DNA from: Giardia intestinalis
Taxonomy: Eukaryota
Length of the DNA: 64,000 bases
Assembly (NCBI GenBank): GCA_000002435.2
Contig: CM018791.1
Strand: one strand, 5' to 3'
Under the pieces are notes generated by a model. It did not search any database. It was not told the origin of the DNA and saw nothing but the letters and a program-made list of their open reading frames with translations. The first letter of the stretch is position 1. Each line of letters begins with the position of its first letter. The position numbers were made by a program, and so were the translations under genes. Positions 26,701 to 50,181 of the stretch are shown here, in pieces.

Positions 26701-29700
26701 CCAACTGTGCCGTATTAGACCCCTGTCTCCACTGAACGGCTGATTCAAGGGCGATTGCCGTTACCAAGATGATACCTTACATTGACTTCTAAGAGCTGTC
26801 TTTGCATATATTACGCTGCTTAGTACTGCGCTCAAACGAAGCTTGCTATTGCTCCGCATCTATTGTGGATTGGAAGAGCAGTTAGCACTCTCAGTGGTCC
26901 ATGTGGTAATCGGAAGCCAGGGAAGTCTAAGTTGAGTGAGAAGCTTGAGAAGCGAGTAGCAGCCCTTATACTCCTCTGCCGGGTGATACAGAGAACTGGC
27001 TCGTTCCTTAGCGTCGATAGTTCTTCAGAATGCACGTTTCTTTGTTTGAGACCTGCATGCTTCGGATTGTCCTCTGTTGCCAGCAGAGCAGCCACCGCCC
27101 TGTGTGTCTCCTTCAGGCACATGCCCATCTATGACGGCGCCTCCTGCCTCTTCTCTGGAGAGGCATAACCGTCCCAATCCAGACACCTTGCTCTCAGCAC
27201 GCATCTCGTATCCAGCAGAAGCCAGGGGCTCATCAACCATATTCCATGAGCATCAGCGCTGTGCCGCTATGTTACTTCCTGTTCTTCTTGAGGGGAGTGC
27301 TCTGACCATCCCAGTGTCTCTATGATAGAAGAGCTGTGGATCCAGAGATGATTGTTGCTTTCTGGCCCTCTCTTCTGTTCAGTAGACTGCGAGAGCGCCC
27401 TTCAGGAGTCGGTCCCCCAACCTTCTGTTCTCTCGGGGAAGTGGTCCTTGGATAGTGCCACTTGGATGATTCTCGAAGCCTCACTGCACGGGTGCTGCTT
27501 TACAAACACTCCTGGCTGAAGCTGGACCCGAATCCTCCTAGAGTTACCTGCTGGCCCAGTCCTTGATTGCTATCAGCAGAGGTCTCAACCTTCCAAGGAC
27601 ATCTCGGGGACAATACGTTTGGCCCACGTCAGCGCCACTTCCTGGCAGGGGCATGCAGAAGATCTGCTCCCTCTTGTAGATCCATCATTGGTATCGAGAG
27701 CACTGCGCCTGCTATCCTCGCTGGAAGTGTCGGTAGACTGTGCCCCGTATCTATCCCATTGAAGAGTTGGAGGTCCGCCAGGGACAGCGAAGAGGATTTC
27801 ATCAAAACTCTGATAGTAGATTTGCCATCATGGCAGCCATAACGTAAATAAGGCCACCAGCTGTCTGATCCCTGCAACTTCCGGGGTGAGACGCCAGGAG
27901 GCGTGGCTGGTTCAGACTAGTGAGGGCTACTCTTGTCATAGCAGGCTCAGAAAGTAGGGAGCAGATGACGTACCTGATGTCCCTCAACGTACGCATGCAG
28001 CCTGGAAACCGTGCTCAAAGCACCGAGGCCTGCAGGGGAGTGGCATCCGAACAGGCCCGACAGTTATGACTGCTTCTGAGGACAAGTCAGCGTGACTAAA
28101 CGAGAACATGAGAACTCACAGAGACCCTCACAGTTTTGATGTCTGGGAGAACGCGGGGGCTGACCACTCCAAGGTTGTCCATCTCATGAGCTGGTTTCCG
28201 ATAGCAGGCATAACAAGGAAGTGTCCTCCAGTCATACACAATTTCATGCCAGCTCATCTCAGGGTAAAGCATCCTTGTCTGGCTTGCCAGTCCATCCATG
28301 ACGGCAGCAGATGTGTCAGCATTCCATATCATCGGCCACTTTGCTGCTGCACAGTCAGAGTACTGCTCGTGGCATTGCTTGCTGATGCTCTGCATAAGGC
28401 CATGTTCCCGTGGCAGTGACAGGTGAGTCTCTTCGTATCTGTAGTTCATCACAGGTACGGCTTCTCTTGGGTCTTCCACTTCTACGTCTGTCTGGTATCT
28501 CACCTCAATGCGAGTGGCCAGCTGCTGTTATTAGATCTTGCAGTATAACTATTACGCATGTGTGTGTCCATCAAGACTACCATATGAGGCTATACACATC
28601 TGGAGTTCTGTTTAGCAGTTATCAGACTCGATATCAAGATGGCACGGGGACAACACTCCCATTGGTCGCCGGGGACATGAATCATCATACAAGCCGCATA
28701 GTGCACCAGAGGCAGCACGACGGTGGAGGGCATGCCTGGAGGTAGATGGCGCCTACAGCAAGTGGCATGCTGTCGTTGTCAGTACAACGGGCATAGTGGC
28801 TACTGGACCCACACTTTAGCAACCTCAGTCGAAGCAGCTGCACATTGAAGGAACAAGTTATAAGTCTCGCCCGCACTGTTGGGTGGTGCTCTGCCTTGAT
28901 GCTAACTCAGCGGACCAGCCCTCACATCGGTGACGGGGAGCAGGACACCGCGCTGGTCACGTGATAAGATGCCTTCACACAATATTCTAACTATTCTAAG
29001 TCACGTTGGAAAGTGGCTAGCCCTTTTGTACTCCTCCTCTCTGAACGGGACTGGAGACACTTAAGGCCCCTTTTAAAGTCTCAGTATCATGGAACCACTG
29101 CCAGGCAACAAACCTTGTACTGTATAGCATGAGAGTCTTTAGGACATATAAAAAGCTGTGCGACCATAGCAACACGTCTTCGTTCACAGGTGCTAGCGGA
29201 ATCGATGGGCACTAGTGAAGCATATTAGCGGGTAGACGACATACTGATTCAGGCACTCTGCGTGCGGTCATGCCCCACAGCTCTCGTAATGGGCCACGGG
29301 CGGCTTGAGGACCGGTGCTCTATGACGGCGCGAGTGTGGAGTGGTGTGCCCAGAGCATCGCCGGACCGATAGCTTCAGCGCGGCATCCAACACGGTACAG
29401 CAGGGAGTTCAAGCCAGCTGAGCATTGGACCAGGCCCTGGATGGGAATTGAGGGTTCCTGTGCACGACTGGGCTACTCTCTAGATGGGACAGGGTGCACA
29501 GTGAGCTGGGTGGGTGCGATGCTGTAAGGTATCCATAGTCGTGTCGATGCATCTGGTAAGTCCACACTGCCGGACAAGCCAAGAAGACCTGAGGGGTAAT
29601 GGTGCCGTCTTGTTATCGCTATGCAGTACTTTAGGGCACGTAGCTAAAGATGTATCCCCTGATGGCTGGGAAAAGGGCAGAGCTAAATGAATAGTGACTA

Positions 29701-32700
29701 TGCCCATCATGAGCAGCTCCAGATGCTACCCAATCACTCCCTGGAAGCGCATATATCTCAGATAGGTGACACTACATTCAGAGTAGAAGAGGAAGTTGTG
29801 CACTGTCTGACCTGCCATTCAGGACCATGTGCGGATAAAAGGTAGCCCAGCGACTGACGCTCTGCATCACCTCCTCGTCCGCGACTTAAGCAACCAGAAG
29901 TCAGCCTCGATATGCAGGACAGGGGCTGCGAGGAGTAAACTCACCACGGGCCCGATTGTCTGACACCAAAAAATCCGGGACGACGACGGCAGCCGCTGTC
30001 TCCCTAGGAGGATGTATTATGCACGGTATCGACCTTGGTCCCCTAGACGGATTGTTTGGGGCACTCTGCACTAGCCCTGACTTCTGAGGCATTACAGCCT
30101 GTGAATAGCACAAAGTGAGGCAAAAAGATATATAGATGGTGTGTCGCTTTTATGGAGAGGTACTCCAACTTTTAGATGCGCACAGCTGCACCGGGATAGG
30201 CAGTTCACCTGGCTTACATTGGTGGCCTGCCCGCCGCCACATTTGTTGCGACAAGAAGCTGCACTTGTCCAATAGATTGAACAAGCATTACAGCGGCTTC
30301 TCTGATGATCCATGCATAGCCATGTGCCGTCCTAGTAGGTAGCATAGATACCATAATATCTAACCCATCTGTTGCTAGCAAGGAATAGCAGTTAATCGCA
30401 CTAGATACCCTTTTAGGCAGGCATACAGTTTCTGTACTTGCACTTCCACCAGTTGTAATGACAAATGTACATTCAGAAAGGTGTTATGGAACGCTCTGCT
30501 GCCTTTCAAGGTGAGACCTAGACCTACATATAAAGCTAAAGGCAGAACTCTACACATCAATTGTTATGATATTAGTGTGGTGACCGGTTTGGACTAAGGC
30601 ACGCTCCTCACCTATCTATGTGCTTGTTTGCATGCTCGCTGCTAGCGTTGGACAGGACTGCGAGAGGGTCTGCCTCGGGCTGCACCCTCTTTATAACACT
30701 TACCCCTTGATGACACACCTTAACAAAGGAGGATGTCGGCTAAGTGCGTAGAAGGCTGCCCGTGCATGGCGATTCCTGGAGAACCGGTTCATACAGAGAA
30801 GGTAGGGGTGACCAGCGGACCAGTTGGGCAAGGCTGGTGCTAGAGAGGCCAGCTACCGGTCTGGATTGCAATAGGGACACCTGTAGTATCTTTCTGCCCT
30901 TCGAGTGTGGAAAGATCGTGAGGCCCGCTGACAAGCTGGACGCTGCTTTTTGATTTTATGCATTTGTAGCAGCATAATATCTATTGGGGTCCACTTCGCT
31001 TGAAACCGAGGAAGCTTAAGTTCTCTCCGTATACAGGCAAGGATCATTTGTAGAGGTATACTGCGCAGGCTGGTATCAGTCGGCGTGGTTGCTGTCCGCA
31101 GATGTCTCACCTACGTCTTCTCATGGCAGATGATCATCAACAACACTTTTCGGCCACGTGGTGTTCTACAGTGTACCTTCACCTTCGACCAAAGGTTGGC
31201 ACACGCATTATGTAGTTTAGATTGCTCATCACCCAGGGTGGTATAGTCAGCTCCTGTCCCTTGCTTGTCCATCTCGTGCAACCATTTATTGATGGCCTTT
31301 CTAGATCAACAGGTGCCTCCATCGGTCCCACAAAGGAATGTGTCATGCAGGCGGCCACTACAGGTTAGGGTCTTCCTACCAAGGAAAAGGGTCAATCGGT
31401 TTACTGCGTGGGGATCCTCTGTGCGTCTCATATAGGCCTGACAGCCCTTGTGCCCCAGTATCTCCTCGCAAGCCGCTGTTTGGAGTCCACATGCATATGA
31501 TTAGCACCACGCATTTGGTTTCAACAAACTATTTAGGGCGTTAGACCCTTTGCACTGCACACTGAGTATGCTCAGCGTGGGAGGTACACAATCAGCATTG
31601 GTCTTCTCGGCTTATTGTATGTATAATATTACTGTTGCTTCGTATTCAACTAGTGGTCCAGCTCATGACCTTGAGCGCAGATGATGGCCCGTCAACGGGT
31701 ATTAGCGGCGATCGTGGCACGTACTTCCACTAGGGCACGGCCTCCTGGGTAGGGGCATAAGTGGACTTCTGTTATTCTGCGGGTTTGCTGCTCCCTCGGA
31801 TAGCAAAGATTGGAGTAGCCCAGACTAGCATTGATCATCTCCGAGTCTCCATCTGTCCTCGTTGTCTGAGGTAGGCTTGATTTCATAAACTGGAAGGCAC
31901 TGCACTGTACTCTGGATCTGCGAAATTCAATTAGGCAGGGCTGCTATCTCGGTGACTGCACTGATGTAGCCTCACACCCCGTAGGACCTACAGGGAGCAT
32001 CACAACCCAATGGAACCCTTTATTTATCTAATGCAAGTTGTAGCTGTGACCTCATAAGCGCAGGACGTTCTAGAATAACCGGTCAACTACAGAGTTCGTC
32101 CATTCATGTAGAGCCAGCAGATAGAGAGTGATATCAGTCTCGTCGATCGTCTAAAACGCACACCAGTCAAGTCTCACAGGCGAGCAAGCCCCACCTACCC
32201 CGTAGCAATAAGCATCGGTGGGTGTCCCTCATAACGATAAGTAGACAGGCTTTCAACGGTCACGGCACTCGCTTTCCTGTTGAAGGCCTTCCAGTCACTG
32301 ACCTAGGTCAGCCTCCTACAAGATCCGTGGCGGAATTGTATCAGAAATGCATGTTTATGGGACTCCCAGCTCAAGGTGTATGCTGCCGGATCCCACTTTC
32401 CATACCAGTCTGTATACAGCGGTGTTCTGGCCTCTAATGAAACTACACTGGAGATCACATAAAATATAATGCCCCAGTCGGGTATTATCAGACTCCTATA
32501 GCTATGCAATGAGGTCTGCTTTTCGCATTACGCATCAGAGAAGTATGTTGGGCTGTAGTGGTGCAATACCTCGTATGATATGGTTCGTGAGCCCAGAGAT
32601 AAGATGCTTGTATCAGTCGATCTGTTTACCTAGGGCCAACCATAAGTTAGACTAACGGTGACAATCAGACTCTGCTCGACTCCCTAACAGCAGATAGAGA

Positions 32701-33699
32701 TCCGACTACCCTAGTACCTTACCTGAGACCACAGGGACGCTGATTACGGGTCTGATTAATAGCTGGCGGAGCGACACGACAGGCCTAAGTTTTTTCTGCC
32801 GAAGTAGCCCACCACAAGAAACTCTTTGTCGTTCATACCAACAAATTCAGGTGCTGCGAGCAATCATGGTTCTACTACTGCTACAATGGACAGCACCAGG
32901 ATGATCCAAAAGGGGTAATGAAAGTCCTGGTTTCTTAGCTTAGGAGACAGCGCGGTTTGGGCAGTGCTTCTTGTCCAAATGTAGAAGTGTTGGCCTGCGT
33001 TTCCTGAACTCTAATTGAGTCCTTGTCATGCGGTAAGGTATCCTAAAATATCCACTACAAAAAGCGAAAAATAGCGCCGTCCACGCCCAACAAACCAAGA
33101 CGTCTCACGGGCTAATCTACGCTGGTTCATATCTTCCATGGACCCTAGCGACCACACCGATCTTCTCCTAGAATCTCACAGGAGCTCGTCTTTGAGTGCA
33201 GCTCTCCTACGACAGTCAGTGGTCGTGGACATTATATGGTGGAGGAGAATGCTACAGGGGCTGAGAAGAGAGTGCTGGCAAACGGGGGTCCGCAGGGATC
33301 CGACCCGCGCAAAGAAGGCGCAGGGGGCTGGCTCCTCAAGGATGCAGAGGCGCCAGGAAGGGAGCCGGTAGCGAACATGGTGCACAGCGGGAACACCCGG
33401 ACCATCCTCAGATTAATGGCAGGACAGAGGAGCTGCAGGCGCATGGGGCAGCATCACCGCTTGTTTTTGGATTTTCTGTTTCCCTGTGTGTTGCGTAAGG
33501 GGTTTCAGAGAAGGCGGGGAGTGTTGGGCTGTGTACAGCGGACGTACTTGGCACTCAATGAATTCCTATTTATTAAACAAAGTATCGTAGGGGACAGATC
33601 TTTTTGGATTGTCTGGCATAACATATAATCAGGTAGGGCGTTTTAGCTTTGGATATATTTACTAGTAGATTCTTACTTCTAATAAACTAATGAGCCTCA

Positions 33700-35601
33700 A
33701 TGTTGTTAATAGTATTCTATCTTGTGCTGAGTGCTCTTGCGGCAAATTGTGAAACAGAAGGCAATAAAAGCAATTGTGACAGCGGTCGCTGTGAAATGGT
33801 TGGCATTGTTGAAGTCTGTACTCAGTGCAAGACAAATGGACACGTCCCTATTGACGGAGTATGTACGCCAAAGAACGAAGCAGATGCTAATTGTAAGAAG
33901 GATGGAGGGAGTCCATTAGATCAAGACGCTAAGATCTGCGGGCAGTGTGCTCAAGGATACTTCCTTCATAAAGGTGGATGCTATGCAATTGGTGGAAACG
34001 TTGGACGCATCATCTGTAATGATCCTACTCCTACACTCAAAGGGCGCAATTCTGTTGAGGGTGTTTGCTCAGCGTGCAATTCTACCAGTGGATTCTTTAA
34101 GAATCCTGCCAATGTAGCTAATAAGGATTCGTGCATAGCATGTGATGATACAACTGGTGATAGTGGCAATGTAGGTTTGGAAGGATGCGCCACTTGCCAA
34201 CATTCTGGTTCGGGAGCAGCCACATGCTTAACATGTAAAGATGGATACTATGATAATAATCCAAGTCAGGATACTGTTACATGTGCATCATGTACGGATG
34301 ACTGTAAGACTTGCATAGATACTGGAAATGCTAAATGCACATCTTGTCAGACAAAATATTTAAAAATTACGGACCCTAATGGTGTGTTTGGGGAATGCGT
34401 TGATGAAAACACATGCAAACAGCCAGGAACCCACTTTCCGATAACAACTACAGATAACATAAAGGTATGTGCTCTTTGTAGCGATGCGGAGAATAAGGGC
34501 GTAGTTGGCTGTGCTAAATGTACCTCGACCCCAGCAAGTGATTCCGGCAATGCAATCATTGTTAAATGCATAGAATGCACAACGCCAGATACCACCAAAC
34601 CCAACTTTGCCGGGACAGGGTGCTTTGCTTGTTCTGCAACAGATTGCTCTAATTGCAGTGCAGATAATGTTTGCGAAAAATGTGGGAAAGGAAAGAAGCT
34701 GAGCCCTTTAAAGGATAGTTGTTTAGATAGTTGCCCTGCTGGCACGCACAACAAGGATAACGTTTGTGTCCCTTGCCACACATCTTGTGCAGAATGTGCA
34801 AGTGATTCTGTGGGAGAAAGCTCATGTACAGCTTGCTATCCTGGATTTGCATTGCGCAAAGGCGAGGACGAGGCTACCGGGGCATGTATTCCAGAATGCA
34901 CGGGAAAGTACGCAGAAAACTGTGAAGCTGGCCAGTGCACAGCCATCGTTGGAGGCTCCAAGTACTGCAGCAAGTGCAAGGCTGGATACGTTCCAGTGGA
35001 CGGCGTCTGTGTGTCGACAACAGCAAGGACGCCGACTGGATGCACGCCAAATGATAACAATGATGGAACATGTAAGGAATGCACAACCACATACTTCCTG
35101 CAGTCTGGCGGGTGTTACAATGCACAGACATTTCCGGGCAAATTGCTATGCACAGCGGCCACTGGCAACGGGCAGTGTCAGACATGTGCAGCCAGTGGAC
35201 AAAGCCCAGCTGGAGGAAAATGTCCGGAATGTTCTGAGGGCTGTGCAAAGTGTACTGACTCTAACACTTGTAACGAATGCTTTTCAGGATATTACAAAGG
35301 TGCTGGTAATAAATGCTTTAAATGTACCGATGGTGACAAGGCTAACTCTGATGCAATAACTGGTGTAGAGAACTGCGTAAGCTGCGCGCCTCCAATTAGT
35401 GGCAATGGTGGCTCTGTCATCTGCTACGTCAAGACGGATGGCACTGGCGGTGGTGATAATGATAACAACACCGGCGGAAGCACGAACAAGAGCGGCCTTT
35501 CCACGGGCGCCATCGCAGGCATCGCTGTGGCTGCTGTCATCGTTGTAGGAGGCCTTGTGGGCTTCCTCTGCTGGTGGTTCATCTGCAGAGGAAAGGCGTA
35601 G
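33700..35601 (+). CDS. Variant-specific surface protein (VSP), copy 1
   Basis: 633 aa. Signal peptide MLLIVFYLVLSALAA, ~12% Cys with dozens of CXXC and GGCY motifs. Single C-terminal TM helix (AIAGIAVAAVIVVGGLVGFLCWWFI) followed by the invariant CRGKA tail. Start sits in a PyAATGTT initiator context (tcaATGTTg). AGTAAAC polyA signal 13 nt after the stop. Confidence 0.95.
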   Translation: MLLIVFYLVLSALAANCETEGNKSNCDSGRCEMVGIVEVCTQCKTNGHVPIDGVCTPKNEADANCKKDGGSPLDQDAKICGQCAQGYFLHKGGCYAIGGNVGRIICNDPTPTLKGRNSVEGVCSACNSTSGFFKNPANVANKDSCIACDDTTGDSGNVGLEGCATCQHSGSGAATCLTCKDGYYDNNPSQDTVTCASCTDDCKTCIDTGNAKCTSCQTKYLKITDPNGVFGECVDENTCKQPGTHFPITTTDNIKVCALCSDAENKGVVGCAKCTSTPASDSGNAIIVKCIECTTPDTTKPNFAGTGCFACSATDCSNCSADNVCEKCGKGKKLSPLKDSCLDSCPAGTHNKDNVCVPCHTSCAECASDSVGESSCTACYPGFALRKGEDEATGACIPECTGKYAENCEAGQCTAIVGGSKYCSKCKAGYVPVDGVCVSTTARTPTGCTPNDNNDGTCKECTTTYFLQSGGCYNAQTFPGKLLCTAATGNGQCQTCAASGQSPAGGKCPECSEGCAKCTDSNTCNECFSGYYKGAGNKCFKCTDGDKANSDAITGVENCVSCAPPISGNGGSVICYVKTDGTGGGDNDNNTGGSTNKSGLSTGAIAGIAVAAVIVVGGLVGFLCWWFICRGKA

Positions 35602-35613
35602 ATGTACTTAGGT

Positions 35614-35620
35614 AGTAAAC
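35614..35620 (+). promoter_or_regulatory. Giardia polyadenylation signal AGTAAAC downstream of VSP copy 1
   Basis: Matches the AGTRAAY consensus and lies 13 nt after the TAG stop. The mirrored copy gtttact sits at 38396..38402 for VSP copy 2. Confidence 0.5.
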
Positions 35621-36160
35621 ACGTTACTTTATGTAGCTTATGTAGATGTGCTGCTGGAGCTATCTGAGCACGGCCCAGGGATCATGTGGGTGGGCCCGTT
35701 CCTTCCTGTCCAGTCCTGAGACGACTGTCGGTCATGGATAACATGACGGAGAGTCCTCTCCAGTGATATATTCAGAGTCTGGGCATTCCTCGGCCACTTC
35801 GCAGGGGTATGCTCTGTCTGGATATCCATACCGATCTGCCTTGGATTCGGGCCTTTTTGTAGACTCTCTGCTCTACCAATGGCGCCTCTCCTTAGTCTCT
35901 CTTCACGGTGGGTGAGGCCCGGGTCGCTGTCTTTTTTAGATGCCCCGTCTGTCAGGGGCTGCCACCGGGCTCTCCGCTGGCTGGGCCCCTCGGTGTCCGG
36001 GCAGCTGTGGTTCTGGGTCAGCGCTCCCACGGTCACGGTCACGTAGGTTCCATAGCGGGCCGGCTGGTGGGGAGGCCGGGGTTGCTGGGGCGGTGAGGGC
36101 TGCTGGGACCGGGTGGGGTGGTGAGGTGGGGGGTGTCTGTATGTGCCCCTGGGTCCGGTG

Positions 36161-37855
36161 AACTGGGGTGATCGCAGCTGTGGTGACTGGGGGCTGTCCA
36201 TCTGTGACTCACCCCTCTGTGGACTCGTGGTCTGTGAGTGCCTCCACCCAGACAGCACCCCAGGAGCCGGAGAGTGGTGCCAGCCTAGCTGCCCTCCCTC
36301 CTCGGTGCCTCCCAGTGCAGACTCACCGGAGGCCACTACCCTGTCAGCCACCCAAAGGAGCCGTGCACACCGGGACAGAGAGGATGACCAAGGGGGTCAA
36401 GCAGCCCTGCCACGAGGGTGCACAGCAACCAGCATGAGATGTAGGGTCTGCTCGAGCGATGTAGTGGCAGACGACTCCCTCTGACAGCGACCCTGGTGAC
36501 TGCACTGGTCTGCTCTCGAGGCTGAGTGACAGTGTGCACAGATGGACATGAGTGCAGGAGGACCGTCCACACACGGACAGACTGTGTGGACCCAGAGAGG
36601 ACTGGAGTCTGCTCGGGACACGCTGACTGTGTGCCCATACGAGAGTGCCAGGCAACTACTCAAGCACCGAGAGGCAGGTACAGACACGGGCACTAGAGAT
36701 CCCCAGCCAGACACATTGCTATGCTCATCCACAGGGGCATCAGAGGGCCAGGTGGAGTCACCCTCACAGTTAGGGCCTGATAGGAAGCCAGAGGACTCAA
36801 ACACTACAGCAGAGCAGGCCCAGAGGAGGCACACTCCAGGCAGGTGAGCAGTGGCAGAGCCTTGATAGCTGCCATCCACCCCCATGACACCCAGGCAGGC
36901 ACCAGACTCCGAAGACTCGCTGGCCTCGACTGATGACCCGAGGGGGCAGCAGCCAGAGGAGCGAGGAGGCCTTCGGACGCCACAAGAGGCCGGCTGTCCA
37001 GCAGGCGATGAGGCAGACAGGTGACCTCTGAGCACCACACAGGCACAGAGCCGACCATCATGAGTGATGCCCGATCACAGAGATGACCACGAGCGCCCTC
37101 CACCGCACTCTGGGGGGCTGTCGATCATCCCACTGCCTCTCATAGCAGACCTCCTTGGGGGCAGTGCAGTGGGTCCCAGCTCATACAGGAGGGTGTGTGC
37201 CCCCCTCAGTATAGGATGCCCCGACTCTTCCCGAGGGGTCATCAGAGCCACGAGGAGGGGTCAAGGTCCTGGTGGATCATATCGGGAACTCCCGAGGGCA
37301 CAGCAGGTGAGGTGTGGGTGACCCTCAGCGTGCTCCTCTCTGCATGGTAGAGCATCCTGAGACCAAGGAAGCTCACCCCTGCCTACGGATGATACACAGC
37401 GCTCCACAACAAGGACCCACAAGGAGCAGCACAGCTGACCACGGGGGCAGTGCAGCCACCCGGTACCCCACCATGCCAGTCTTCTGGGCCATCACACTAG
37501 AGGCCTGAGAGAACCCCATCCCATCCACAGGGTCATCCACACCCCTGCTGGCCCGAGGTGAACTGCACCCATCGAGGCACTGGACAGGGCATGCTGGGGG
37601 CCCAGCAGATCCACACAGAGCATCAGCACAGAGCATCAGCGAGTAGCAGGAGAGGCTGCGATGGCCTGCCTCAGCCCTCACGCACCAGCCAGACAGAGCA
37701 GTACTGCCTGAGGCATGCAGGGGCCAAGGGAGGCGCTCAGTCAGGGGACACGACACGATCGTCGGTGCCTCTGTCTCAGGAGTACAACGAAGGCTGAAGA
37801 GCAGACACAGTCACCTTGGCAAACAGAACGGGGATCACCCACCACCCCAATGGCC
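36161..37855. other. Unique GC-rich central spacer of the palindrome (~1.7 kb, apparently non-coding)
   Basis: The arm mirror relation breaks here (left: ...cctgggtccggtgAACTGGGG; right rc: ...cctgggtccggtgGGCCATTGG). GC visibly >60%. Overlapping ORFs in several frames on both strands are typical of non-coding GC-rich DNA. Confidence 0.7.
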
Positions 37856-40800
37856 CACCGGACCCAGGGGCACATACAGACACCCCCCACCTCACCACCC
37901 CACCCGGTCCCAGCAGCCCTCACCGCCCCAGCAACCCCGGCCTCCCCACCAGCCGGCCCGCTATGGAACCTACGTGACCGTGACCGTGGGAGCGCTGACC
38001 CAGAACCACAGCTGCCCGGACACCGAGGGGCCCAGCCAGCGGAGAGCCCGGTGGCAGCCCCTGACAGACGGGGCATCTAAAAAAGACAGCGACCCGGGCC
38101 TCACCCACCGTGAAGAGAGACTAAGGAGAGGCGCCATTGGTAGAGCAGAGAGTCTACAAAAAGGCCCGAATCCAAGGCAGATCGGTATGGATATCCAGAC
38201 AGAGCATACCCCTGCGAAGTGGCCGAGGAATGCCCAGACTCTGAATATATCACTGGAGAGGACTCTCCGTCATGTTATCCATGACCGACAGTCGTCTCAG
38301 GACTGGACAGGAAGGAACGGGCCCACCCACATGATCCCTGGGCCGTGCTCAGATAGCTCCAGCAGCACATCTACATAAGCTACATAAAGTAACGTGTTTA
38401 CTACCTAAGTACATCTACGCCTTTCCTCTGCAGATGAACCACCAGCAGAGGAAGCCCACAAGGCCTCCTACAACGATGACAGCAGCCACAGCGATGCCTG
38501 CGATGGCGCCCGTGGAAAGGCCGCTCTTGTTCGTGCTTCCGCCGGTGTTGTTATCATTATCACCACCGCCAGTGCCATCCGTCTTGACGTAGCAGATGAC
38601 AGAGCCACCATTGCCACTAATTGGAGGCGCGCAGCTTACGCAGTTCTCTACACCAGTTATTGCATCAGAGTTAGCCTTGTCACCATCGGTACATTTAAAG
38701 CATTTATTACCAGCACCTTTGTAATATCCTGAAAAGCATTCGTTACAAGTGTTAGAGTCAGTACACTTTGCACAGCCCTCAGAACATTCCGGACATTTTC
38801 CTCCAGCTGGGCTTTGTCCACTGGCTGCACATGTCTGACACTGCCCGTTGCCAGTGGCCGCTGTGCATAGCAATTTGCCCGGAAATGTCTGTGCATTGTA
38901 ACACCCGCCAGACTGCAGGAAGTATGTGGTTGTGCATTCCTTACATGTTCCATCATTGTTATCATTTGGCGTGCATCCAGTCGGCGTCCTTGCTGTTGTC
39001 GACACACAGACGCCGTCCACTGGAACGTATCCAGCCTTGCACTTGCTGCAGTACTTGGAGCCTCCAACGATGGCTGTGCACTGGCCAGCTTCACAGTTTT
39101 CTGCGTACTTTCCCGTGCATTCTGGAATACATGCCCCGGTAGCCTCGTCCTCGCCTTTGCGCAATGCAAATCCAGGATAGCAAGCTGTACATGAGCTTTC
39201 TCCCACAGAATCACTTGCACATTCTGCACAAGATGTGTGGCAAGGGACACAAACGTTATCCTTGTTGTGCGTGCCAGCAGGGCAACTATCTAAACAACTA
39301 TCCTTTAAAGGGCTCAGCTTCTTTCCTTTCCCACATTTTTCGCAAACATTATCTGCACTGCAATTAGAGCAATCTGTTGCAGAACAAGCAAAGCACCCTG
39401 TCCCGGCAAAGTTGGGTTTGGTGGTATCTGGCGTTGTGCATTCTATGCATTTAACAATGATTGCATTGCCGGAATCACTTGCTGGGGTCGAGGTACATTT
39501 AGCACAGCCAACTACGCCCTTATTCTCCGCATCGCTACAAAGAGCACATACCTTTATGTTATCTGTAGTTGTTATCGGAAAGTGGGTTCCTGGCTGTTTG
39601 CATGTGTTTTCATCAACGCATTCCCCAAACACACCATTAGGGTCCGTAATTTTTAAATATTTTGTCTGACAAGATGTGCATTTAGCATTTCCAGTATCTA
39701 TGCAAGTCTTACAGTCATCCGTACATGATGCACATGTAACAGTATCCTGACTTGGATTATTATCATAGTATCCATCTTTACATGTTAAGCATGTGGCTGC
39801 TCCCGAACCAGAATGTTGGCAAGTGGCGCATCCTTCCAAACCTACATTGCCACTATCACCAGTTGTATCATCACATGCTATGCACGAATCCTTATTAGCT
39901 ACATTGGCAGGATTCTTAAAGAATCCACTGGTAGAATTGCACGCTGAGCAAACACCCTCAACAGAATTGCGCCCTTTGAGTGTAGGAGTAGGATCATTAC
40001 AGATGATGCGTCCAACGTTTCCACCAATTGCATAGCATCCACCTTTATGAAGGAAGTATCCTTGAGCACACTGCCCGCAGATCTTAGCGTCTTGATCTAA
40101 TGGACTCCCTCCATCCTTCTTACAATTAGCATCTGCTTCGTTCTTTGGCGTACATACTCCGTCAATAGGGACGTGTCCATTTGTCTTGCACTGAGTACAG
40201 ACTTCAACAATGCCAACCATTTCACAGCGACCGCTGTCACAATTGCTTTTATTGCCTTCTGTTTCACAATTTGCCGCAAGAGCACTCAGCACAAGATAGA
40301 ATACTATTAACAACATTGAGGCTCATTAGTTTATTAGAAGTAAGAATCTACTAGTAAATATATCCAAAGCTAAAACGCCCTACCTGATTATATGTTATGC
40401 CAGACAATCCAAAAAGATCTGTCCCCTACGATACTTTGTTTAATAAATAGGAATTCATTGAGTGCCAAGTACGTCCGCTGTACACAGCCCAACACTCCCC
40501 GCCTTCTCTGAAACCCCTTACGCAACACACAGGGAAACAGAAAATCCAAAAACAAGCGGTGATGCTGCCCCATGCGCCTGCAGCTCCTCTGTCCTGCCAT
40601 TAATCTGAGGATGGTCCGGGTGTTCCCGCTGTGCACCATGTTCGCTACCGGCTCCCTTCCTGGCGCCTCTGCATCCTTGAGGAGCCAGCCCCCTGCGCCT
40701 TCTTTGCGCGGGTCGGATCCCTGCGGACCCCCGTTTGCCAGCACTCTCTTCTCAGCCCCTGTAGCATTCTCCTCCACCATATAATGTCCACGACCACTGA

Positions 40801-43800
40801 CTGTCGTAGGAGAGCTGCACTCAAAGACGAGCTCCTGTGAGATTCTAGGAGAAGATCGGTGTGGTCGCTAGGGTCCATGGAAGATATGAACCAGCGTAGA
40901 TTAGCCCGTGAGACGTCTTGGTTTGTTGGGCGTGGACGGCGCTATTTTTCGCTTTTTGTAGTGGATATTTTAGGATACCTTACCGCATGACAAGGACTCA
41001 ATTAGAGTTCAGGAAACGCAGGCCAACACTTCTACATTTGGACAAGAAGCACTGCCCAAACCGCGCTGTCTCCTAAGCTAAGAAACCAGGACTTTCATTA
41101 CCCCTTTTGGATCATCCTGGTGCTGTCCATTGTAGCAGTAGTAGAACCATGATTGCTCGCAGCACCTGAATTTGTTGGTATGAACGACAAAGAGTTTCTT
41201 GTGGTGGGCTACTTCGGCAGAAAAAACTTAGGCCTGTCGTGTCGCTCCGCCAGCTATTAATCAGACCCGTAATCAGCGTCCCTGTGGTCTCAGGTAAGGT
41301 ACTAGGGTAGTCGGATCTCTATCTGCTGTTAGGGAGTCGAGCAGAGTCTGATTGTCACCGTTAGTCTAACTTATGGTTGGCCCTAGGTAAACAGATCGAC
41401 TGATACAAGCATCTTATCTCTGGGCTCACGAACCATATCATACGAGGTATTGCACCACTACAGCCCAACATACTTCTCTGATGCGTAATGCGAAAAGCAG
41501 ACCTCATTGCATAGCTATAGGAGTCTGATAATACCCGACTGGGGCATTATATTTTATGTGATCTCCAGTGTAGTTTCATTAGAGGCCAGAACACCGCTGT
41601 ATACAGACTGGTATGGAAAGTGGGATCCGGCAGCATACACCTTGAGCTGGGAGTCCCATAAACATGCATTTCTGATACAATTCCGCCACGGATCTTGTAG
41701 GAGGCTGACCTAGGTCAGTGACTGGAAGGCCTTCAACAGGAAAGCGAGTGCCGTGACCGTTGAAAGCCTGTCTACTTATCGTTATGAGGGACACCCACCG
41801 ATGCTTATTGCTACGGGGTAGGTGGGGCTTGCTCGCCTGTGAGACTTGACTGGTGTGCGTTTTAGACGATCGACGAGACTGATATCACTCTCTATCTGCT
41901 GGCTCTACATGAATGGACGAACTCTGTAGTTGACCGGTTATTCTAGAACGTCCTGCGCTTATGAGGTCACAGCTACAACTTGCATTAGATAAATAAAGGG
42001 TTCCATTGGGTTGTGATGCTCCCTGTAGGTCCTACGGGGTGTGAGGCTACATCAGTGCAGTCACCGAGATAGCAGCCCTGCCTAATTGAATTTCGCAGAT
42101 CCAGAGTACAGTGCAGTGCCTTCCAGTTTATGAAATCAAGCCTACCTCAGACAACGAGGACAGATGGAGACTCGGAGATGATCAATGCTAGTCTGGGCTA
42201 CTCCAATCTTTGCTATCCGAGGGAGCAGCAAACCCGCAGAATAACAGAAGTCCACTTATGCCCCTACCCAGGAGGCCGTGCCCTAGTGGAAGTACGTGCC
42301 ACGATCGCCGCTAATACCCGTTGACGGGCCATCATCTGCGCTCAAGGTCATGAGCTGGACCACTAGTTGAATACGAAGCAACAGTAATATTATACATACA
42401 ATAAGCCGAGAAGACCAATGCTGATTGTGTACCTCCCACGCTGAGCATACTCAGTGTGCAGTGCAAAGGGTCTAACGCCCTAAATAGTTTGTTGAAACCA
42501 AATGCGTGGTGCTAATCATATGCATGTGGACTCCAAACAGCGGCTTGCGAGGAGATACTGGGGCACAAGGGCTGTCAGGCCTATATGAGACGCACAGAGG
42601 ATCCCCACGCAGTAAACCGATTGACCCTTTTCCTTGGTAGGAAGACCCTAACCTGTAGTGGCCGCCTGCATGACACATTCCTTTGTGGGACCGATGGAGG
42701 CACCTGTTGATCTAGAAAGGCCATCAATAAATGGTTGCACGAGATGGACAAGCAAGGGACAGGAGCTGACTATACCACCCTGGGTGATGAGCAATCTAAA
42801 CTACATAATGCGTGTGCCAACCTTTGGTCGAAGGTGAAGGTACACTGTAGAACACCACGTGGCCGAAAAGTGTTGTTGATGATCATCTGCCATGAGAAGA
42901 CGTAGGTGAGACATCTGCGGACAGCAACCACGCCGACTGATACCAGCCTGCGCAGTATACCTCTACAAATGATCCTTGCCTGTATACGGAGAGAACTTAA
43001 GCTTCCTCGGTTTCAAGCGAAGTGGACCCCAATAGATATTATGCTGCTACAAATGCATAAAATCAAAAAGCAGCGTCCAGCTTGTCAGCGGGCCTCACGA
43101 TCTTTCCACACTCGAAGGGCAGAAAGATACTACAGGTGTCCCTATTGCAATCCAGACCGGTAGCTGGCCTCTCTAGCACCAGCCTTGCCCAACTGGTCCG
43201 CTGGTCACCCCTACCTTCTCTGTATGAACCGGTTCTCCAGGAATCGCCATGCACGGGCAGCCTTCTACGCACTTAGCCGACATCCTCCTTTGTTAAGGTG
43301 TGTCATCAAGGGGTAAGTGTTATAAAGAGGGTGCAGCCCGAGGCAGACCCTCTCGCAGTCCTGTCCAACGCTAGCAGCGAGCATGCAAACAAGCACATAG
43401 ATAGGTGAGGAGCGTGCCTTAGTCCAAACCGGTCACCACACTAATATCATAACAATTGATGTGTAGAGTTCTGCCTTTAGCTTTATATGTAGGTCTAGGT
43501 CTCACCTTGAAAGGCAGCAGAGCGTTCCATAACACCTTTCTGAATGTACATTTGTCATTACAACTGGTGGAAGTGCAAGTACAGAAACTGTATGCCTGCC
43601 TAAAAGGGTATCTAGTGCGATTAACTGCTATTCCTTGCTAGCAACAGATGGGTTAGATATTATGGTATCTATGCTACCTACTAGGACGGCACATGGCTAT
43701 GCATGGATCATCAGAGAAGCCGCTGTAATGCTTGTTCAATCTATTGGACAAGTGCAGCTTCTTGTCGCAACAAATGTGGCGGCGGGCAGGCCACCAATGT

Positions 43801-46800
43801 AAGCCAGGTGAACTGCCTATCCCGGTGCAGCTGTGCGCATCTAAAAGTTGGAGTACCTCTCCATAAAAGCGACACACCATCTATATATCTTTTTGCCTCA
43901 CTTTGTGCTATTCACAGGCTGTAATGCCTCAGAAGTCAGGGCTAGTGCAGAGTGCCCCAAACAATCCGTCTAGGGGACCAAGGTCGATACCGTGCATAAT
44001 ACATCCTCCTAGGGAGACAGCGGCTGCCGTCGTCGTCCCGGATTTTTTGGTGTCAGACAATCGGGCCCGTGGTGAGTTTACTCCTCGCAGCCCCTGTCCT
44101 GCATATCGAGGCTGACTTCTGGTTGCTTAAGTCGCGGACGAGGAGGTGATGCAGAGCGTCAGTCGCTGGGCTACCTTTTATCCGCACATGGTCCTGAATG
44201 GCAGGTCAGACAGTGCACAACTTCCTCTTCTACTCTGAATGTAGTGTCACCTATCTGAGATATATGCGCTTCCAGGGAGTGATTGGGTAGCATCTGGAGC
44301 TGCTCATGATGGGCATAGTCACTATTCATTTAGCTCTGCCCTTTTCCCAGCCATCAGGGGATACATCTTTAGCTACGTGCCCTAAAGTACTGCATAGCGA
44401 TAACAAGACGGCACCATTACCCCTCAGGTCTTCTTGGCTTGTCCGGCAGTGTGGACTTACCAGATGCATCGACACGACTATGGATACCTTACAGCATCGC
44501 ACCCACCCAGCTCACTGTGCACCCTGTCCCATCTAGAGAGTAGCCCAGTCGTGCACAGGAACCCTCAATTCCCATCCAGGGCCTGGTCCAATGCTCAGCT
44601 GGCTTGAACTCCCTGCTGTACCGTGTTGGATGCCGCGCTGAAGCTATCGGTCCGGCGATGCTCTGGGCACACCACTCCACACTCGCGCCGTCATAGAGCA
44701 CCGGTCCTCAAGCCGCCCGTGGCCCATTACGAGAGCTGTGGGGCATGACCGCACGCAGAGTGCCTGAATCAGTATGTCGTCTACCCGCTAATATGCTTCA
44801 CTAGTGCCCATCGATTCCGCTAGCACCTGTGAACGAAGACGTGTTGCTATGGTCGCACAGCTTTTTATATGTCCTAAAGACTCTCATGCTATACAGTACA
44901 AGGTTTGTTGCCTGGCAGTGGTTCCATGATACTGAGACTTTAAAAGGGGCCTTAAGTGTCTCCAGTCCCGTTCAGAGAGGAGGAGTACAAAAGGGCTAGC
45001 CACTTTCCAACGTGACTTAGAATAGTTAGAATATTGTGTGAAGGCATCTTATCACGTGACCAGCGCGGTGTCCTGCTCCCCGTCACCGATGTGAGGGCTG
45101 GTCCGCTGAGTTAGCATCAAGGCAGAGCACCACCCAACAGTGCGGGCGAGACTTATAACTTGTTCCTTCAATGTGCAGCTGCTTCGACTGAGGTTGCTAA
45201 AGTGTGGGTCCAGTAGCCACTATGCCCGTTGTACTGACAACGACAGCATGCCACTTGCTGTAGGCGCCATCTACCTCCAGGCATGCCCTCCACCGTCGTG
45301 CTGCCTCTGGTGCACTATGCGGCTTGTATGATGATTCATGTCCCCGGCGACCAATGGGAGTGTTGTCCCCGTGCCATCTTGATATCGAGTCTGATAACTG
45401 CTAAACAGAACTCCAGATGTGTATAGCCTCATATGGTAGTCTTGATGGACACACACATGCGTAATAGTTATACTGCAAGATCTAATAACAGCAGCTGGCC
45501 ACTCGCATTGAGGTGAGATACCAGACAGACGTAGAAGTGGAAGACCCAAGAGAAGCCGTACCTGTGATGAACTACAGATACGAAGAGACTCACCTGTCAC
45601 TGCCACGGGAACATGGCCTTATGCAGAGCATCAGCAAGCAATGCCACGAGCAGTACTCTGACTGTGCAGCAGCAAAGTGGCCGATGATATGGAATGCTGA
45701 CACATCTGCTGCCGTCATGGATGGACTGGCAAGCCAGACAAGGATGCTTTACCCTGAGATGAGCTGGCATGAAATTGTGTATGACTGGAGGACACTTCCT
45801 TGTTATGCCTGCTATCGGAAACCAGCTCATGAGATGGACAACCTTGGAGTGGTCAGCCCCCGCGTTCTCCCAGACATCAAAACTGTGAGGGTCTCTGTGA
45901 GTTCTCATGTTCTCGTTTAGTCACGCTGACTTGTCCTCAGAAGCAGTCATAACTGTCGGGCCTGTTCGGATGCCACTCCCCTGCAGGCCTCGGTGCTTTG
46001 AGCACGGTTTCCAGGCTGCATGCGTACGTTGAGGGACATCAGGTACGTCATCTGCTCCCTACTTTCTGAGCCTGCTATGACAAGAGTAGCCCTCACTAGT
46101 CTGAACCAGCCACGCCTCCTGGCGTCTCACCCCGGAAGTTGCAGGGATCAGACAGCTGGTGGCCTTATTTACGTTATGGCTGCCATGATGGCAAATCTAC
46201 TATCAGAGTTTTGATGAAATCCTCTTCGCTGTCCCTGGCGGACCTCCAACTCTTCAATGGGATAGATACGGGGCACAGTCTACCGACACTTCCAGCGAGG
46301 ATAGCAGGCGCAGTGCTCTCGATACCAATGATGGATCTACAAGAGGGAGCAGATCTTCTGCATGCCCCTGCCAGGAAGTGGCGCTGACGTGGGCCAAACG
46401 TATTGTCCCCGAGATGTCCTTGGAAGGTTGAGACCTCTGCTGATAGCAATCAAGGACTGGGCCAGCAGGTAACTCTAGGAGGATTCGGGTCCAGCTTCAG
46501 CCAGGAGTGTTTGTAAAGCAGCACCCGTGCAGTGAGGCTTCGAGAATCATCCAAGTGGCACTATCCAAGGACCACTTCCCCGAGAGAACAGAAGGTTGGG
46601 GGACCGACTCCTGAAGGGCGCTCTCGCAGTCTACTGAACAGAAGAGAGGGCCAGAAAGCAACAATCATCTCTGGATCCACAGCTCTTCTATCATAGAGAC
46701 ACTGGGATGGTCAGAGCACTCCCCTCAAGAAGAACAGGAAGTAACATAGCGGCACAGCGCTGATGCTCATGGAATATGGTTGATGAGCCCCTGGCTTCTG

Positions 46801-49800
46801 CTGGATACGAGATGCGTGCTGAGAGCAAGGTGTCTGGATTGGGACGGTTATGCCTCTCCAGAGAAGAGGCAGGAGGCGCCGTCATAGATGGGCATGTGCC
46901 TGAAGGAGACACACAGGGCGGTGGCTGCTCTGCTGGCAACAGAGGACAATCCGAAGCATGCAGGTCTCAAACAAAGAAACGTGCATTCTGAAGAACTATC
47001 GACGCTAAGGAACGAGCCAGTTCTCTGTATCACCCGGCAGAGGAGTATAAGGGCTGCTACTCGCTTCTCAAGCTTCTCACTCAACTTAGACTTCCCTGGC
47101 TTCCGATTACCACATGGACCACTGAGAGTGCTAACTGCTCTTCCAATCCACAATAGATGCGGAGCAATAGCAAGCTTCGTTTGAGCGCAGTACTAAGCAG
47201 CGTAATATATGCAAAGACAGCTCTTAGAAGTCAATGTAAGGTATCATCTTGGTAACGGCAATCGCCCTTGAATCAGCCGTTCAGTGGAGACAGGGGTCTA
47301 ATACGGCACAGTTGGGCCATATACAGGCAGTGGGTGTAAGAGCTATTGTAGACAGACACCGCCGCTAAGAACGCCAGAGGGGAGCTCCCATCAGCTAATG
47401 TGTTTCCAGAGCCACGTCTCTAGCGGAGCATGGCCTCCCGCAGTAAGATTTTGCAGGTGTCACCTGTAGTAATTCTGGATGCTTTATGGGGTGAAGCAGC
47501 TTATCCACAGACTTCACGAGACCGGGGCTGCCCACATAGCTACTAAGGTGAGAGAGTGTGATTGTACGGAGCAACGCTATGTCTGCTCTTCCATCACTTA
47601 GCGGCCAGAGGATTGCTCTCAGGCTGCACCTCCGCTCATAAGTGTGCGAGGGTTCCTCTAGTGATTGTCTCGTTGGCTAGTTAGCTACAGATGCCATGGC
47701 GACATAGATCACTAGTGCATACGCTGGGTTACTTTTTGCTAGAGCAGACAGAGGCATGACAGATCAATCCAGGAGCGTCTTCTCACGTCGCACGAAAATG
47801 TGGATCTACACACTAGGGGTGCATTCTCATAAACAGCTTCCTCTGCCATGACTCAGAGCTATCAGGCGAGCAGTGACGCTTCAGAGCCATCTGCCTCCTC
47901 TATGCGAGAGTTACTCGATAGACCAGAGTCGCTGCCAGAAGGTGTGCTTTGCAGCAGACAGAGTATCTCGTGTCTCAAGCCTGTCTGGCCGTACTAGGAA
48001 CTGAAGCCATGCCGCTAAGCCTCAGTGGATCAGAAAGCACTCCGCAGCCAGTGTGACTCTTGTGATGTTAGCTTCTGAGGCTATGGAGGAGCCCTTGGCC
48101 TCGTGGTCTTTGCACTATGGGTCCACTCATTTGGCCGTCTTACTCAGATGAGTAGAACGCGGTGCCTTCTGCAAGTCCCTATACTGCGAGTTCGCGCTAG
48201 GATCCATTAGTGTCTAACTAGTTTGGTGGAACTCTGCTCTTATCCCCACAAGTTTGTTACTGCAGATAACTCACTGTATTGACTCTATGGTGATCGCAAG
48301 TATTCCAAAGCTGGGGAACTGTCTGTTAGAGCTACCGGTCCCGGCCTTCATTAAGCCCGCGATTGCCTCATCAAAGCCTCCACACACTACGAAGCAGGTT
48401 TCTACCCGTCTGCTATGTACCTATGGTCTGCCTTAGACTTCGTGTGTCAGAGTCTGGTGTTGAAGGATGCGATTCTGCGTAGCTTAGTCAAAGCCTTACT
48501 AATTGGGTATCTGCTCTCATCTATCCGGATCAAGGATCTGTTGGCGACTATGCCTGAATCTGTTCTCTGCAGGAGTGTCCTCTCGGGCTGTAGATATCCT
48601 CTGTCCTCGAAGTGGTGCTAGTTCAAGCTGTCACAGTAAGTGGGGGCTCCTGCAGCCAGTGGAGTCAGCGTCTTCTGACCCGACATGCACCAGGGCCTCC
48701 AGAAGCAGCGACCTCCATCTGCCATGGCTAGTAAATGCCCTCCATAGAGCTTATACGGTGACATGGCCTTCCAAGCCGTAACGCCTAGGGTTGCGGATGG
48801 ATGTAAGCGATTGCTTCATAGAGTATTGCGACTATCAATAGCAGGGGAAATGAGAACAACAAGTAGCGGCAGCAGACCGTAGAGCAGCAGGTAGGAACGG
48901 GACTGGGTCGCGTTCGCTCTTCTACACTAAACTGGATCGTCTCTCTAAAAGACTCAGAGAGACGCAGCAGTGTCTCCGCGACTGTAAAGCAAGCCTAGTC
49001 AATTACCAGGCTTGTAAGAGAAACATGCAGCCAGACGCTGTAACTGCTGTCCGAGCAAATCCCTCATGCAAGTGCCATGCAAAGAACTTCCCTGCTTGTT
49101 CATCATCTGAAGTCAGGGAATCGAGGTTCAGATGTTGTCCCATTTTGGTGACAAAGGAGAATGCTTCTTCCCTCAAGGCGATAGCGAGTGCAGATGAGCG
49201 TTTGAAGCTGGCAATGGCGCCGATCACTCGCCACGCTTGTCGAGATGGACCCACACGTGATTCATATGAATCCCTTGACAAGAGATGAGGCCCTTGGGGT
49301 GCTTGGCTGACGGAGGCAAATTGAACACATGACCGCACCGAAGAGCGGTGGCGGCCTGGGCCACCTGCCGGGCGTCTGCTACAACAGCTGGCAGTGCCTG
49401 ACACCCTCGAGTAGGCGGACACTAAGCGAGACGACCTGACGGTGAACCGGTCCTGATCGCTCTTGGTGCTTCGGATGACGCCCCTCGGAGAGGTGGCCCT
49501 GGACTGACGCCTCGACAGACCGAAGCATCACCCCAAGTGTGCTGTGCAGATGGACCAGCCCACACGTCAGCCGAGCCAGACGCACTGCATAGAATGATGC
49601 GCCGACACGGTCTCGTGCTGGGTGACGGAGCACCTGCAAGAGTGCACTGTGATCCATGAGCAGAGGGCCATACTTCTCCCCCGACACAACACATGGGAGC
49701 TGTCCGTGGCATCCACAAACGCGTACCACAACTCCAAGATAGAGGCGCACGGGGAGCAGACCCTCCAATCATACTCGAGACTGATGGTATAATCCACGAG

Positions 49801-50151: not shown

Positions 50152-50181
50152 TCGGATATATCTCTTCAATAAAATCTATAT

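Follow-up and report, generated by a model that had tools for sequence, protein, structure and literature searches.

Tail-to-tail VSP gene pairs in Giardia intestinalis appear to share one conserved non-coding hinge, with an ancestral boundary and with G-rich tracts at that boundary. We describe this hinge in a 64,000-nt stretch of DNA (GenBank assembly GCA_000002435.2, contig CM018791.1; hereafter the window), in which two identical VSP genes converge on the centre of a long palindrome. The hinge is a module of ~2.3 kb, made up of a conserved ~290-nt inverted block (35870–36160 and its mirror) and a 1.7-kb core. We propose that it is an old inverted-repeat hinge around which long arms are kept identical, a reading to which we give roughly an even chance of being right.

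The window contains two identical VSP open reading frames (ORFs), located by ORF scan at 33700–35601 (+) and 38415–40316 (−), which are convergent, encode 633 aa each and end in CRGKA. The distance between them is 2,813 bp, and symmetry stops 559 nt past the stop codon. Comparison of the two arms places the inverted repeat at 23860–36160 (+) and 37856–50156 (−), so that arms of 12,301 nt each surround a spacer of 1,695 nt. The left arm consists of ~9.8 kb of gene-free DNA followed by the VSP gene and its 559-nt 3′ flank, and the right arm is its mirror, with a sole mismatch at 23863, 4 nt from the outer edge.

Between the VSP genes and the core, the short inverted repeat is divided into several segments. 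The VSP 3′ motif TACTTAGGTAGTAAACACGT (35605–35624, +; mirror 38392–38411, −) contains the AGTAAA poly(A) signal, is listed in the motif table of a preprint (10.1101/2022.03.07.483299; hereafter the preprint) and is conserved in our five-way alignment. It is followed by a VSP-proximal 3′ flank (35625–35869, +; mirror 38147–38391), which forms the poorly conserved outer part of the repeat, and by a conserved inner-arm block (35870–36055, +; mirror 37961–38146, −). Next comes the G-rich tract (36056–36142, +; mirror 37874–37960, −), which constitutes the innermost ~90 nt of the conserved ~290-nt inverted block, and then the last 18 nt of symmetry, of TATGTGCCCCTGGGTCCGGTG type (36143–36160, +; mirror 37856–37873). 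The asymmetric, non-coding core occupies 36161–37855 (+), a total of 1,695 nt.

Copies of the hinge were sought by searching ENA metagenome assemblies with the longest spurious ORF of the core. The search found seven ORFs, and six of the contigs that encode them (L003–L008, from four ENA samples) carry homologous cores. In particular, L003, L004 and L007 are three distinct copies from one sample, indicating that the family is multi-copy within a genome. Wherever the contig reaches far enough, each related core is adjoined by a VSP 3′ end or by the characteristic VSP 3′ flank. The cores are 88–91% identical between copies by BLAST with gaps counted, or 92–96% identical over aligned columns, and the related copies are roughly equidistant from one another. 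The core had earlier been described, from the letters of the window, as unique; it is indeed single-copy within the window, but L003–L008 and the S4 table of the preprint place it in a multi-copy family associated with VSP 3′ ends. Searching the core for other copies was thus productive, with six related copies, although the answer was partly in the literature already. For the ORF spanning the arm and the junction, only one relative was found, and conserved 31- and 40-mers of the module had no match in JGI metagenome contigs, GTDB genomes or viral contigs.

The most informative of these copies for the position of the boundary is L004 (ENA ERZ27317378, 1–6072), the only related copy that carries both junctions. 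L004 is ~10% diverged, and both junctions of the window could be aligned with both of its junctions. The window and L004 have the same symmetry boundary, …TGTATGTGCCCCTGG(G)TCCGGTG|, and the conserved site at which it falls is …CCCCTGGGTCCGGTG. Beyond the boundary, each side has a distinct core end, with weak residual symmetry over ~30 nt. The junction thus looks ancestral, as judged from the alignment, and the short inverted repeat, the G-tract and the boundary are old, because the copies that share them differ by 8–12%. The idea that the junction is a by-product of the local inverted duplication does not agree with this observation, since the same boundary is found in the ~10%-diverged L004. 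L004 has one VSP flanking the hinge, with short arms that are 77–100% identical. On the second side, a short imperfect arm is followed by an ORF of 198 aa, on the opposite strand, with another VSP after it, so that an unrelated gene occupies the position expected for the second VSP; L004 could be either a decayed palindrome or a pre-duplication state. In L003, a truncated core abuts a second VSP-type 3′ flank in direct orientation.

Conservation climbs toward the centre of the hinge. Specifically, identity between copies is 56–76% in the VSP-proximal flank (35650–35860), 84–100% in the inner-arm block and 92–96% in the part of the core that is covered by all copies (36356–36930). Between L005 and L006, identity is 100% within the inner block and 70% within the flank, a contrast that indicates segments with different histories and hence mosaic exchange. 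The inner block contains an invariant T6 element, TCTTTTTTAGAT (35930–35941; A6 mirror at 38075–38086), which is followed by a small hairpin, CCCC-GTCTGTCA-GGGG, the two together spanning 35930–35958 (mirror 38058–38086). All five aligned copies have the T6 run unchanged, while the hairpin stem differs by one base in L003. This element is the only A/T-rich spot in the conserved module (35870–38146). Giardia promoters are short A/T-rich elements, and the T6 element is a candidate transcription start that could direct synthesis either toward the core or antisense through the VSP.

The G-rich tracts lie exactly at the junctions between arms and spacer, as the original prediction had claimed. The last 111 nt of the left arm (36050–36160, +) are 55% G and 19% C and contain ten runs of three or more Gs, where at least six had been predicted, and the mirrored G-rich strand is found, also as predicted, on the − strand of the right junction at 37874–37960. 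In both arms, it is the sense strand of the neighbouring VSP gene that is rich in G. A regular expression for G-quadruplexes (G4s), with runs of at least three Gs and loops of 1–7 nt, matches both tracts, at 36069–36118 (+) and 37898–37947 (−). A third match at 37838–37865 (−) carries the right tract into the core, where its G-runs extend to 37838. The three matches compare with 0.49 expected in the window, with the reservation that two of them are mirror images and count as one independent event.

The tracts are G4-capable by the canonical definition, having at least four runs of three or more Gs, loops of 1–7 nt and a G4Hunter score above ~1.5; to call them G4-forming would go beyond this. 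With a 25-nt window, G4Hunter peaks at 2.36 in the tract, the top value in the 64 kb. This peak is not extreme, as the maxima of dinucleotide shuffles of the window average 1.87 and go up to 2.56. Over 80 nt, in contrast, the tract scores 1.70, whereas no site elsewhere in the window exceeds 1.18 and 1,000 shuffles of the GC-rich module attain at most 1.76. What stands out is therefore the length of the tract rather than its 25-nt peak. G-richness is kept in all copies (42–53% G) and tract length varies, with a 41-nt deletion in the G-tract of L003 and in that of the right arm of L004. Taken together, the earlier observation of G-rich junctions is correct and goes beyond chance, and its interpretation is partly right, since G4-capable tracts do lie at a palindrome centre; replication stalling or foldback at the G-tract is plausible. 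What the interpretation overlooks is that this centre is no one-off product of a local duplication but an ancestral hinge, conserved and multi-copy, of a class of VSP pairs that had been described before.

The composition of the core is distinctive. The core consists of 23.7% A, 31.5% C, 30.4% G and 14.4% T, and its GC content of 61.9%, against 49.0% in the window and 46.8% outside the palindrome, bears out the earlier estimate of >60% in ~49% GC DNA. The T-poor, strand-asymmetric composition (T 14%) is common to all copies. CpG observed/expected ratios are 0.30–0.41 in all copies, compared with 0.5–0.8 elsewhere in the window; TG and CA occur at ~1.6 times expectation, and AA, TT and TA are strongly depleted. 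A/T-rich octamers are absent from the core, against 33 per kb in the window, but this depletion is not significant as a separate signal once dinucleotide content is preserved. CpG hypermutability was also considered and discarded: a first count made CpG columns 2.4 times more variable, but it was biased by column selection, and deviation of CpG sites from the majority consensus shows no excess (5.1% versus 4.2%, p = 0.35). Deviation from the family consensus is ~4–5% at CpG, non-CpG and A/T sites alike, and the predicted equilibrium GC content is ~51%. On the basis of these equal rates and of this equilibrium value, the GC-rich, CpG-poor composition is best read as ancestral and decaying toward the genome average, and not as maintained.

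The core is not a gene nor a recognisable RNA. Mismatches between copies fall on the three codon positions in a ratio of 44/28/40, about twenty indels separate the copies, almost all of 1–2 nt, and relatives of the core ORF have a protein identity of only 42–93% despite ~90% DNA identity. Pfam returned nothing above noise for ten core ORFs. In addition, five VSPs searched against the module by tblastn showed no significant similarity to it (E > 0.01), so that the published label "VSP like region" is unsupported at the protein level. Rfam gave no gathering-score match in the whole window and no match at E ≤ 1 over 35500–38500. A sliding RNAalifold scan of both strands yielded z-values of ~0 wherever the core alignment is ungapped; strongly negative values at 35968–36457 were disregarded, as they coincide with gapped columns. 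Of the 105 published Giardia miRNAs in Table S1, 69 were tested, and none of them could be placed in the window at up to four mismatches. Girep RNAs, which are tandem repeats, proved unrelated to the hinge, and the only internal repeats in the core are short matches at chance level.

Two local differences distinguish the core of the window from its relatives. Only the window copy has a segment of 94 nt (36262–36355, +) that is delimited by the 8-nt direct repeat AGGAGCCG, and the six other copies carry a single AGGAGCCG without the segment. It represents either a microhomology-type deletion in the lineage of the others or an insertion specific to the subfamily of the window. A 13-nt unit, CACAGAGCATCAG, is tandemly duplicated (two copies) at 37614–37640 (+) and occurs once in L004, which alone among the aligned copies extends over this part.

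The protein encoded by the window ORF is the published sequence of GL50803_00115830/115831 on NC_051858.1. The vsp1 row in Table 5 of Adam 2010 (BMC Genomics) gives 559 nt and 2,814 bp, and Table 2 of Xu 2020 (Sci Data) lists 115830/115831 on chromosome 3 as a convergent (-> <-) pair of 633 aa, 2,813 bp apart. Since the 559 nt, the 2,813-bp spacing and the protein sequence all agree with published entries, the locus is the published tail-to-tail pair GL50803_00115830/115831 of Giardia intestinalis WB chromosome 3. The earlier attribution of the DNA to Giardia was right. A pair of this kind is recognised by ~2.2–3.8 kb of gene-free DNA between the ORFs and by abrupt divergence 318–559 nt past the stop codon, and in the window all three features that we tested, namely the ORFs, the spacing with its divergence point and the annotated pair, are those of an identical tail-to-tail VSP pair. 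The palindrome is a known, independently assembled feature and not an artefact of this assembly. A VSP met by protein search, P0010 (VSP S8, 633 aa), shares only 45% identity with the VSP of the window, and exact look-ups of the window VSP and of the two longest hinge ORFs matched no record.

The class to which this pair belongs, and the similarity of tail-to-tail spacers, are already known. About 20 Giardia VSP genes form perfectly identical inverted pairs, an arrangement that the authors who catalogued it termed "cryptic", and identical vsp genes were found only as inverted pairs (Adam 2010). All 12 of the 12 tail-to-tail pairs of WB have gene-free spacers, of 2,526–2,813 bp (Xu 2020), and the S4 table of the preprint clusters the spacers as "very similar", with this locus in cluster *3 together with three other pairs. 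The window locus is one of the identical tail-to-tail vsp pairs of WB, like the vsp1267 pair, that were described in these accounts (Adam 2010; Xu 2020; the preprint). In contrast to the earlier accounts, the arm length of 12.3 kb is given here, as it is visible only in the long-read assembly. We found no mention, in the literature searched, of the G-rich tracts, the inner boundary, the strand-asymmetric CpG-poor composition, the coding and RNA-structure tests or the conservation gradient.

We propose the following mechanism for the upkeep of the palindrome. The standing short inverted repeat would let both arms pair across the hinge, and the arms would be kept identical by gene conversion between them, or by fold-back and break-induced copying that follows a break. 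The same recombinational repair could lengthen the arms, and symmetry would stop where the asymmetric core starts. The G-tract at the edge lies, on each side, on the strand reading inward to the core, and may serve as the site of stalling or breakage that triggers repair, while the core would be an inherited spacer in neutral drift. The 12.3-kb arms would then be a younger, or continuously homogenised, layer on an old hinge. Specifically, the arms differ by one mismatch, near the outer edge, over 12.3 kb, compared with 8–12% between paralogous hinges that share the inner boundary. Homogenisation by gene conversion, and any role of a G4, are what we infer from this pattern. Recent duplication alone is less favoured, because it should also have produced tandem or dispersed copies that are identical, and only inverted ones were found (Adam 2010).

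The combination of an old hinge with identical arms points to concerted evolution, as in the palindromes of the human Y and X chromosomes, which are kept by arm-to-arm gene conversion and which likewise have near-identical arms with gene copies around a non-duplicated spacer. In the human palindromes, however, the spacer differs from one palindrome to the next, whereas one homologous spacer recurs across the Giardia palindromes; the Giardia palindrome is, moreover, ~10–100 times smaller, and gene conversion in Giardia is deduced rather than established. A short inverted repeat with a non-palindromic centre at the axis is also a feature of the rDNA palindrome of Tetrahymena and of palindromic amplification from short inverted repeats in yeast and mammalian cells. 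The loop is 1.7 kb in Giardia, compared with tens of bases in those systems. Unlike the Tetrahymena-type systems, the interstitial Giardia palindrome has unique DNA at either side and would thus need a second template switch or conversion. Finally, a G4-capable tract beside a variant surface-antigen gene, at an inferred site of recombination, is reminiscent of the pilE G4 of Neisseria and of the enrichment of G4s near var genes of Plasmodium. In contrast to these systems, Giardia is considered to switch its VSPs by epigenetic or post-transcriptional means and not by recombination, and the Giardia motif is not strictly conserved and is known from its sequence.

Several points weigh against this proposal. 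The strict G4 motif is kept in only two of the six distinct arm tracts (the window arms and the left arm of L004); the tracts of L003, L005, L006 and the right arm of L004 have no strict motif, yet retain 42–50% G and G4Hunter scores of 1.8–2.2. In addition, a ViennaRNA fold with G4s allowed has no G4 in the minimum-energy structure of the window tract, which instead pairs as a hairpin with a C-rich stretch just upstream (~36021–36045). The imperfect conservation of the motif weakens the step in which the G-tract acts as trigger, and breaks, stalling and conversion tracts at the hinge are conjectural. The arms could simply be a very recent duplication, and the stronger conservation of the centre could instead reflect selection on a function of the core. 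The comparison of copies rests on metagenome contigs, and not on the sequences of the other WB pairs; these contigs are taken to be from Giardia on account of the VSP genes that they carry and of homology to the window, and they may be chimeric. Furthermore, G. muris has identical head-to-head and tail-to-tail VSP pairs with different intervening sequences that contain NEK or ankyrin remnants, so that this particular hinge is not essential for a VSP palindrome.

A different function for the same elements would be that of a transcription barrier, in which the G-tract and a promoter-free core pause or terminate transcription and insulate the two genes, blocking antisense read-through and the hairpin double-stranded RNA that it would generate. 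Overlapping transcripts occur at 81% of tail-to-tail gene pairs in Giardia, and in other eukaryotes RNA polymerase II pauses at G-rich elements that lie downstream of poly(A) sites. The G-tract is on the sense strand, ~450–540 nt beyond each VSP poly(A) signal, and its G-rich strand is the VSP sense strand not only in both arms but also beside the single VSPs of L003, L005 and L006; a gene-free spacer of 2.8 kb is, in addition, unusual in a compact genome. This orientation, however, follows of itself for any sequence that lies in a palindrome arm. That the core has no A/T-rich octamer, compared with 33 per kb in the window, would suit a promoter-free spacer as well, but this absence is fully explained by the dinucleotide content of the core, and the variable length of the G-tract, with its 41-nt deletion in some copies, is not what a barrier would suggest. 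On balance we regard the barrier as unlikely, although it is the strongest of the competing accounts. We give a smaller chance to the hinge, or the arm–hinge–arm unit, being transcribed as a long non-coding or hairpin RNA that feeds small-RNA silencing of VSPs, for example from the T6/A6 element. Such a source of regulatory RNA would account for the conservation of the module, increasing toward its centre, for the strand-asymmetric composition (T 14%) of all copies, and for a single A/T-rich element that is invariant in every aligned copy that covers it. It is at variance with the lack of any Rfam match or conserved secondary structure, with the failure of all 69 tested miRNAs to map to the window and with a substitution pattern that looks neutral. 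The low expression of this VSP pair in the tables of the preprint has no weight either way on this matter.

The inverted ends of the module are also suggestive of a non-autonomous, foldback-like mobile element, with terminal inverted repeats of ~290–560 nt, inserted downstream of VSP genes. The hinge is a discrete conserved unit, whose inner block is inverted in both the window and L004, it is present in several contexts beside unrelated VSP genes, and its roughly equidistant copies would fit a burst of spread. An insertion nevertheless seems improbable to us, as there is no transposase or other Pfam domain in the core ORFs, no target-site duplication and no sharp outer end, conservation fading at ~35855–35875, and the published annotation of the spacer is "VSP like region" and not a transposon relic. 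Moreover, all the contexts recovered are VSP 3′ ends, as would be expected just as much from co-duplication with VSP genes. The hinge could, finally, be inert, with its composition and G-runs functionless and inherited from a founding palindrome, and with arms that result from a very recent duplication. The equal deviation across site classes and the equilibrium GC of ~51%, which make 62% GC a decaying state, the lack of a coding or RNA-structure signal and the loss of the strict G4 motif in other copies are all in accordance with an inert relic. It leaves unexplained, however, that identical VSP genes occur only inverted, that conservation rises toward the centre, and that G-richness and the boundary persist across copies, and we consider it no better than a slim prospect. 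We would be similarly surprised if the hinge were a dedicated cis-element of the VSP system, bounded by G-tracts, free of promoters and of compositionally foreign origin, that both nucleates homogenising repair and gates read-through or hairpin RNA, thereby linking the pairs to small-RNA silencing. An old hinge that keeps its arms identical through repair is thus the reading that we prefer.

Outside the hinge, the VSP-upstream ~9.8 kb of each arm (23860–33700; mirror 40317–50156) have 51–57% GC and a CpG observed/expected ratio of 0.52–0.71, in an otherwise gene-dense window. No ORF of at least 150 aa is found in 23860–33700, and the longest of its ORFs have no Pfam match (ten arm ORFs scanned). 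Gene-poor surroundings of VSPs have been reported (Xu 2020). A stretch of L003 (3804–6454) is ~71% identical to 30873–33493 of the window, indicating that the VSP-upstream region is also a repeated family.

The genes that flank the palindrome are 99.99% identical to short-read Logan assemblies of WB-like isolates. One Logan contig (L001) ends 82 nt outside the left arm edge, at window position 23778, and another (L002) starts at 49970, 187 nt inside the right arm edge. Such contig ends near the arm edges are consistent with a repeat and uninformative on its form; given their asymmetry, the outermost ~190 nt of the arm may behave differently in those assemblies. At the outer ends of the arms (23857–23866 and 50150–50159), the left sequence reads …tgtc|CAAGCAAGTCCC and the right, as reverse complement, …tatc|CGAGCAAGTCCC, with microhomology of a few bases at most. 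The right arm edge is only 26 nt from the start of a gene with a NOT2/3/5 domain (50182).

Inverted duplications of similar size have been called in nanopore data, with a mean size of 2,257 bp for WB (AWB) and of 2,680 bp for assemblage B GS (BGS) (Pollo et al. 2020, PMC7048089, Table 3). These are near the size of the hinge or spacer and might be VSP hinges or flips of the core.

The present analysis adds to a known structure the G-tract, the boundary, the composition, a non-coding and unstructured core and the conservation gradient, and thereby recasts what was a palindrome centre as a defined, testable element. If the hinge is inert, the result is a tidy description of a structure that was already known. 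If instead homogenisation of the arms is driven by the hinge, or antisense VSP RNA is under its control, the hinge would be relevant to the upkeep and the silencing of the surface-antigen repertoire of Giardia.

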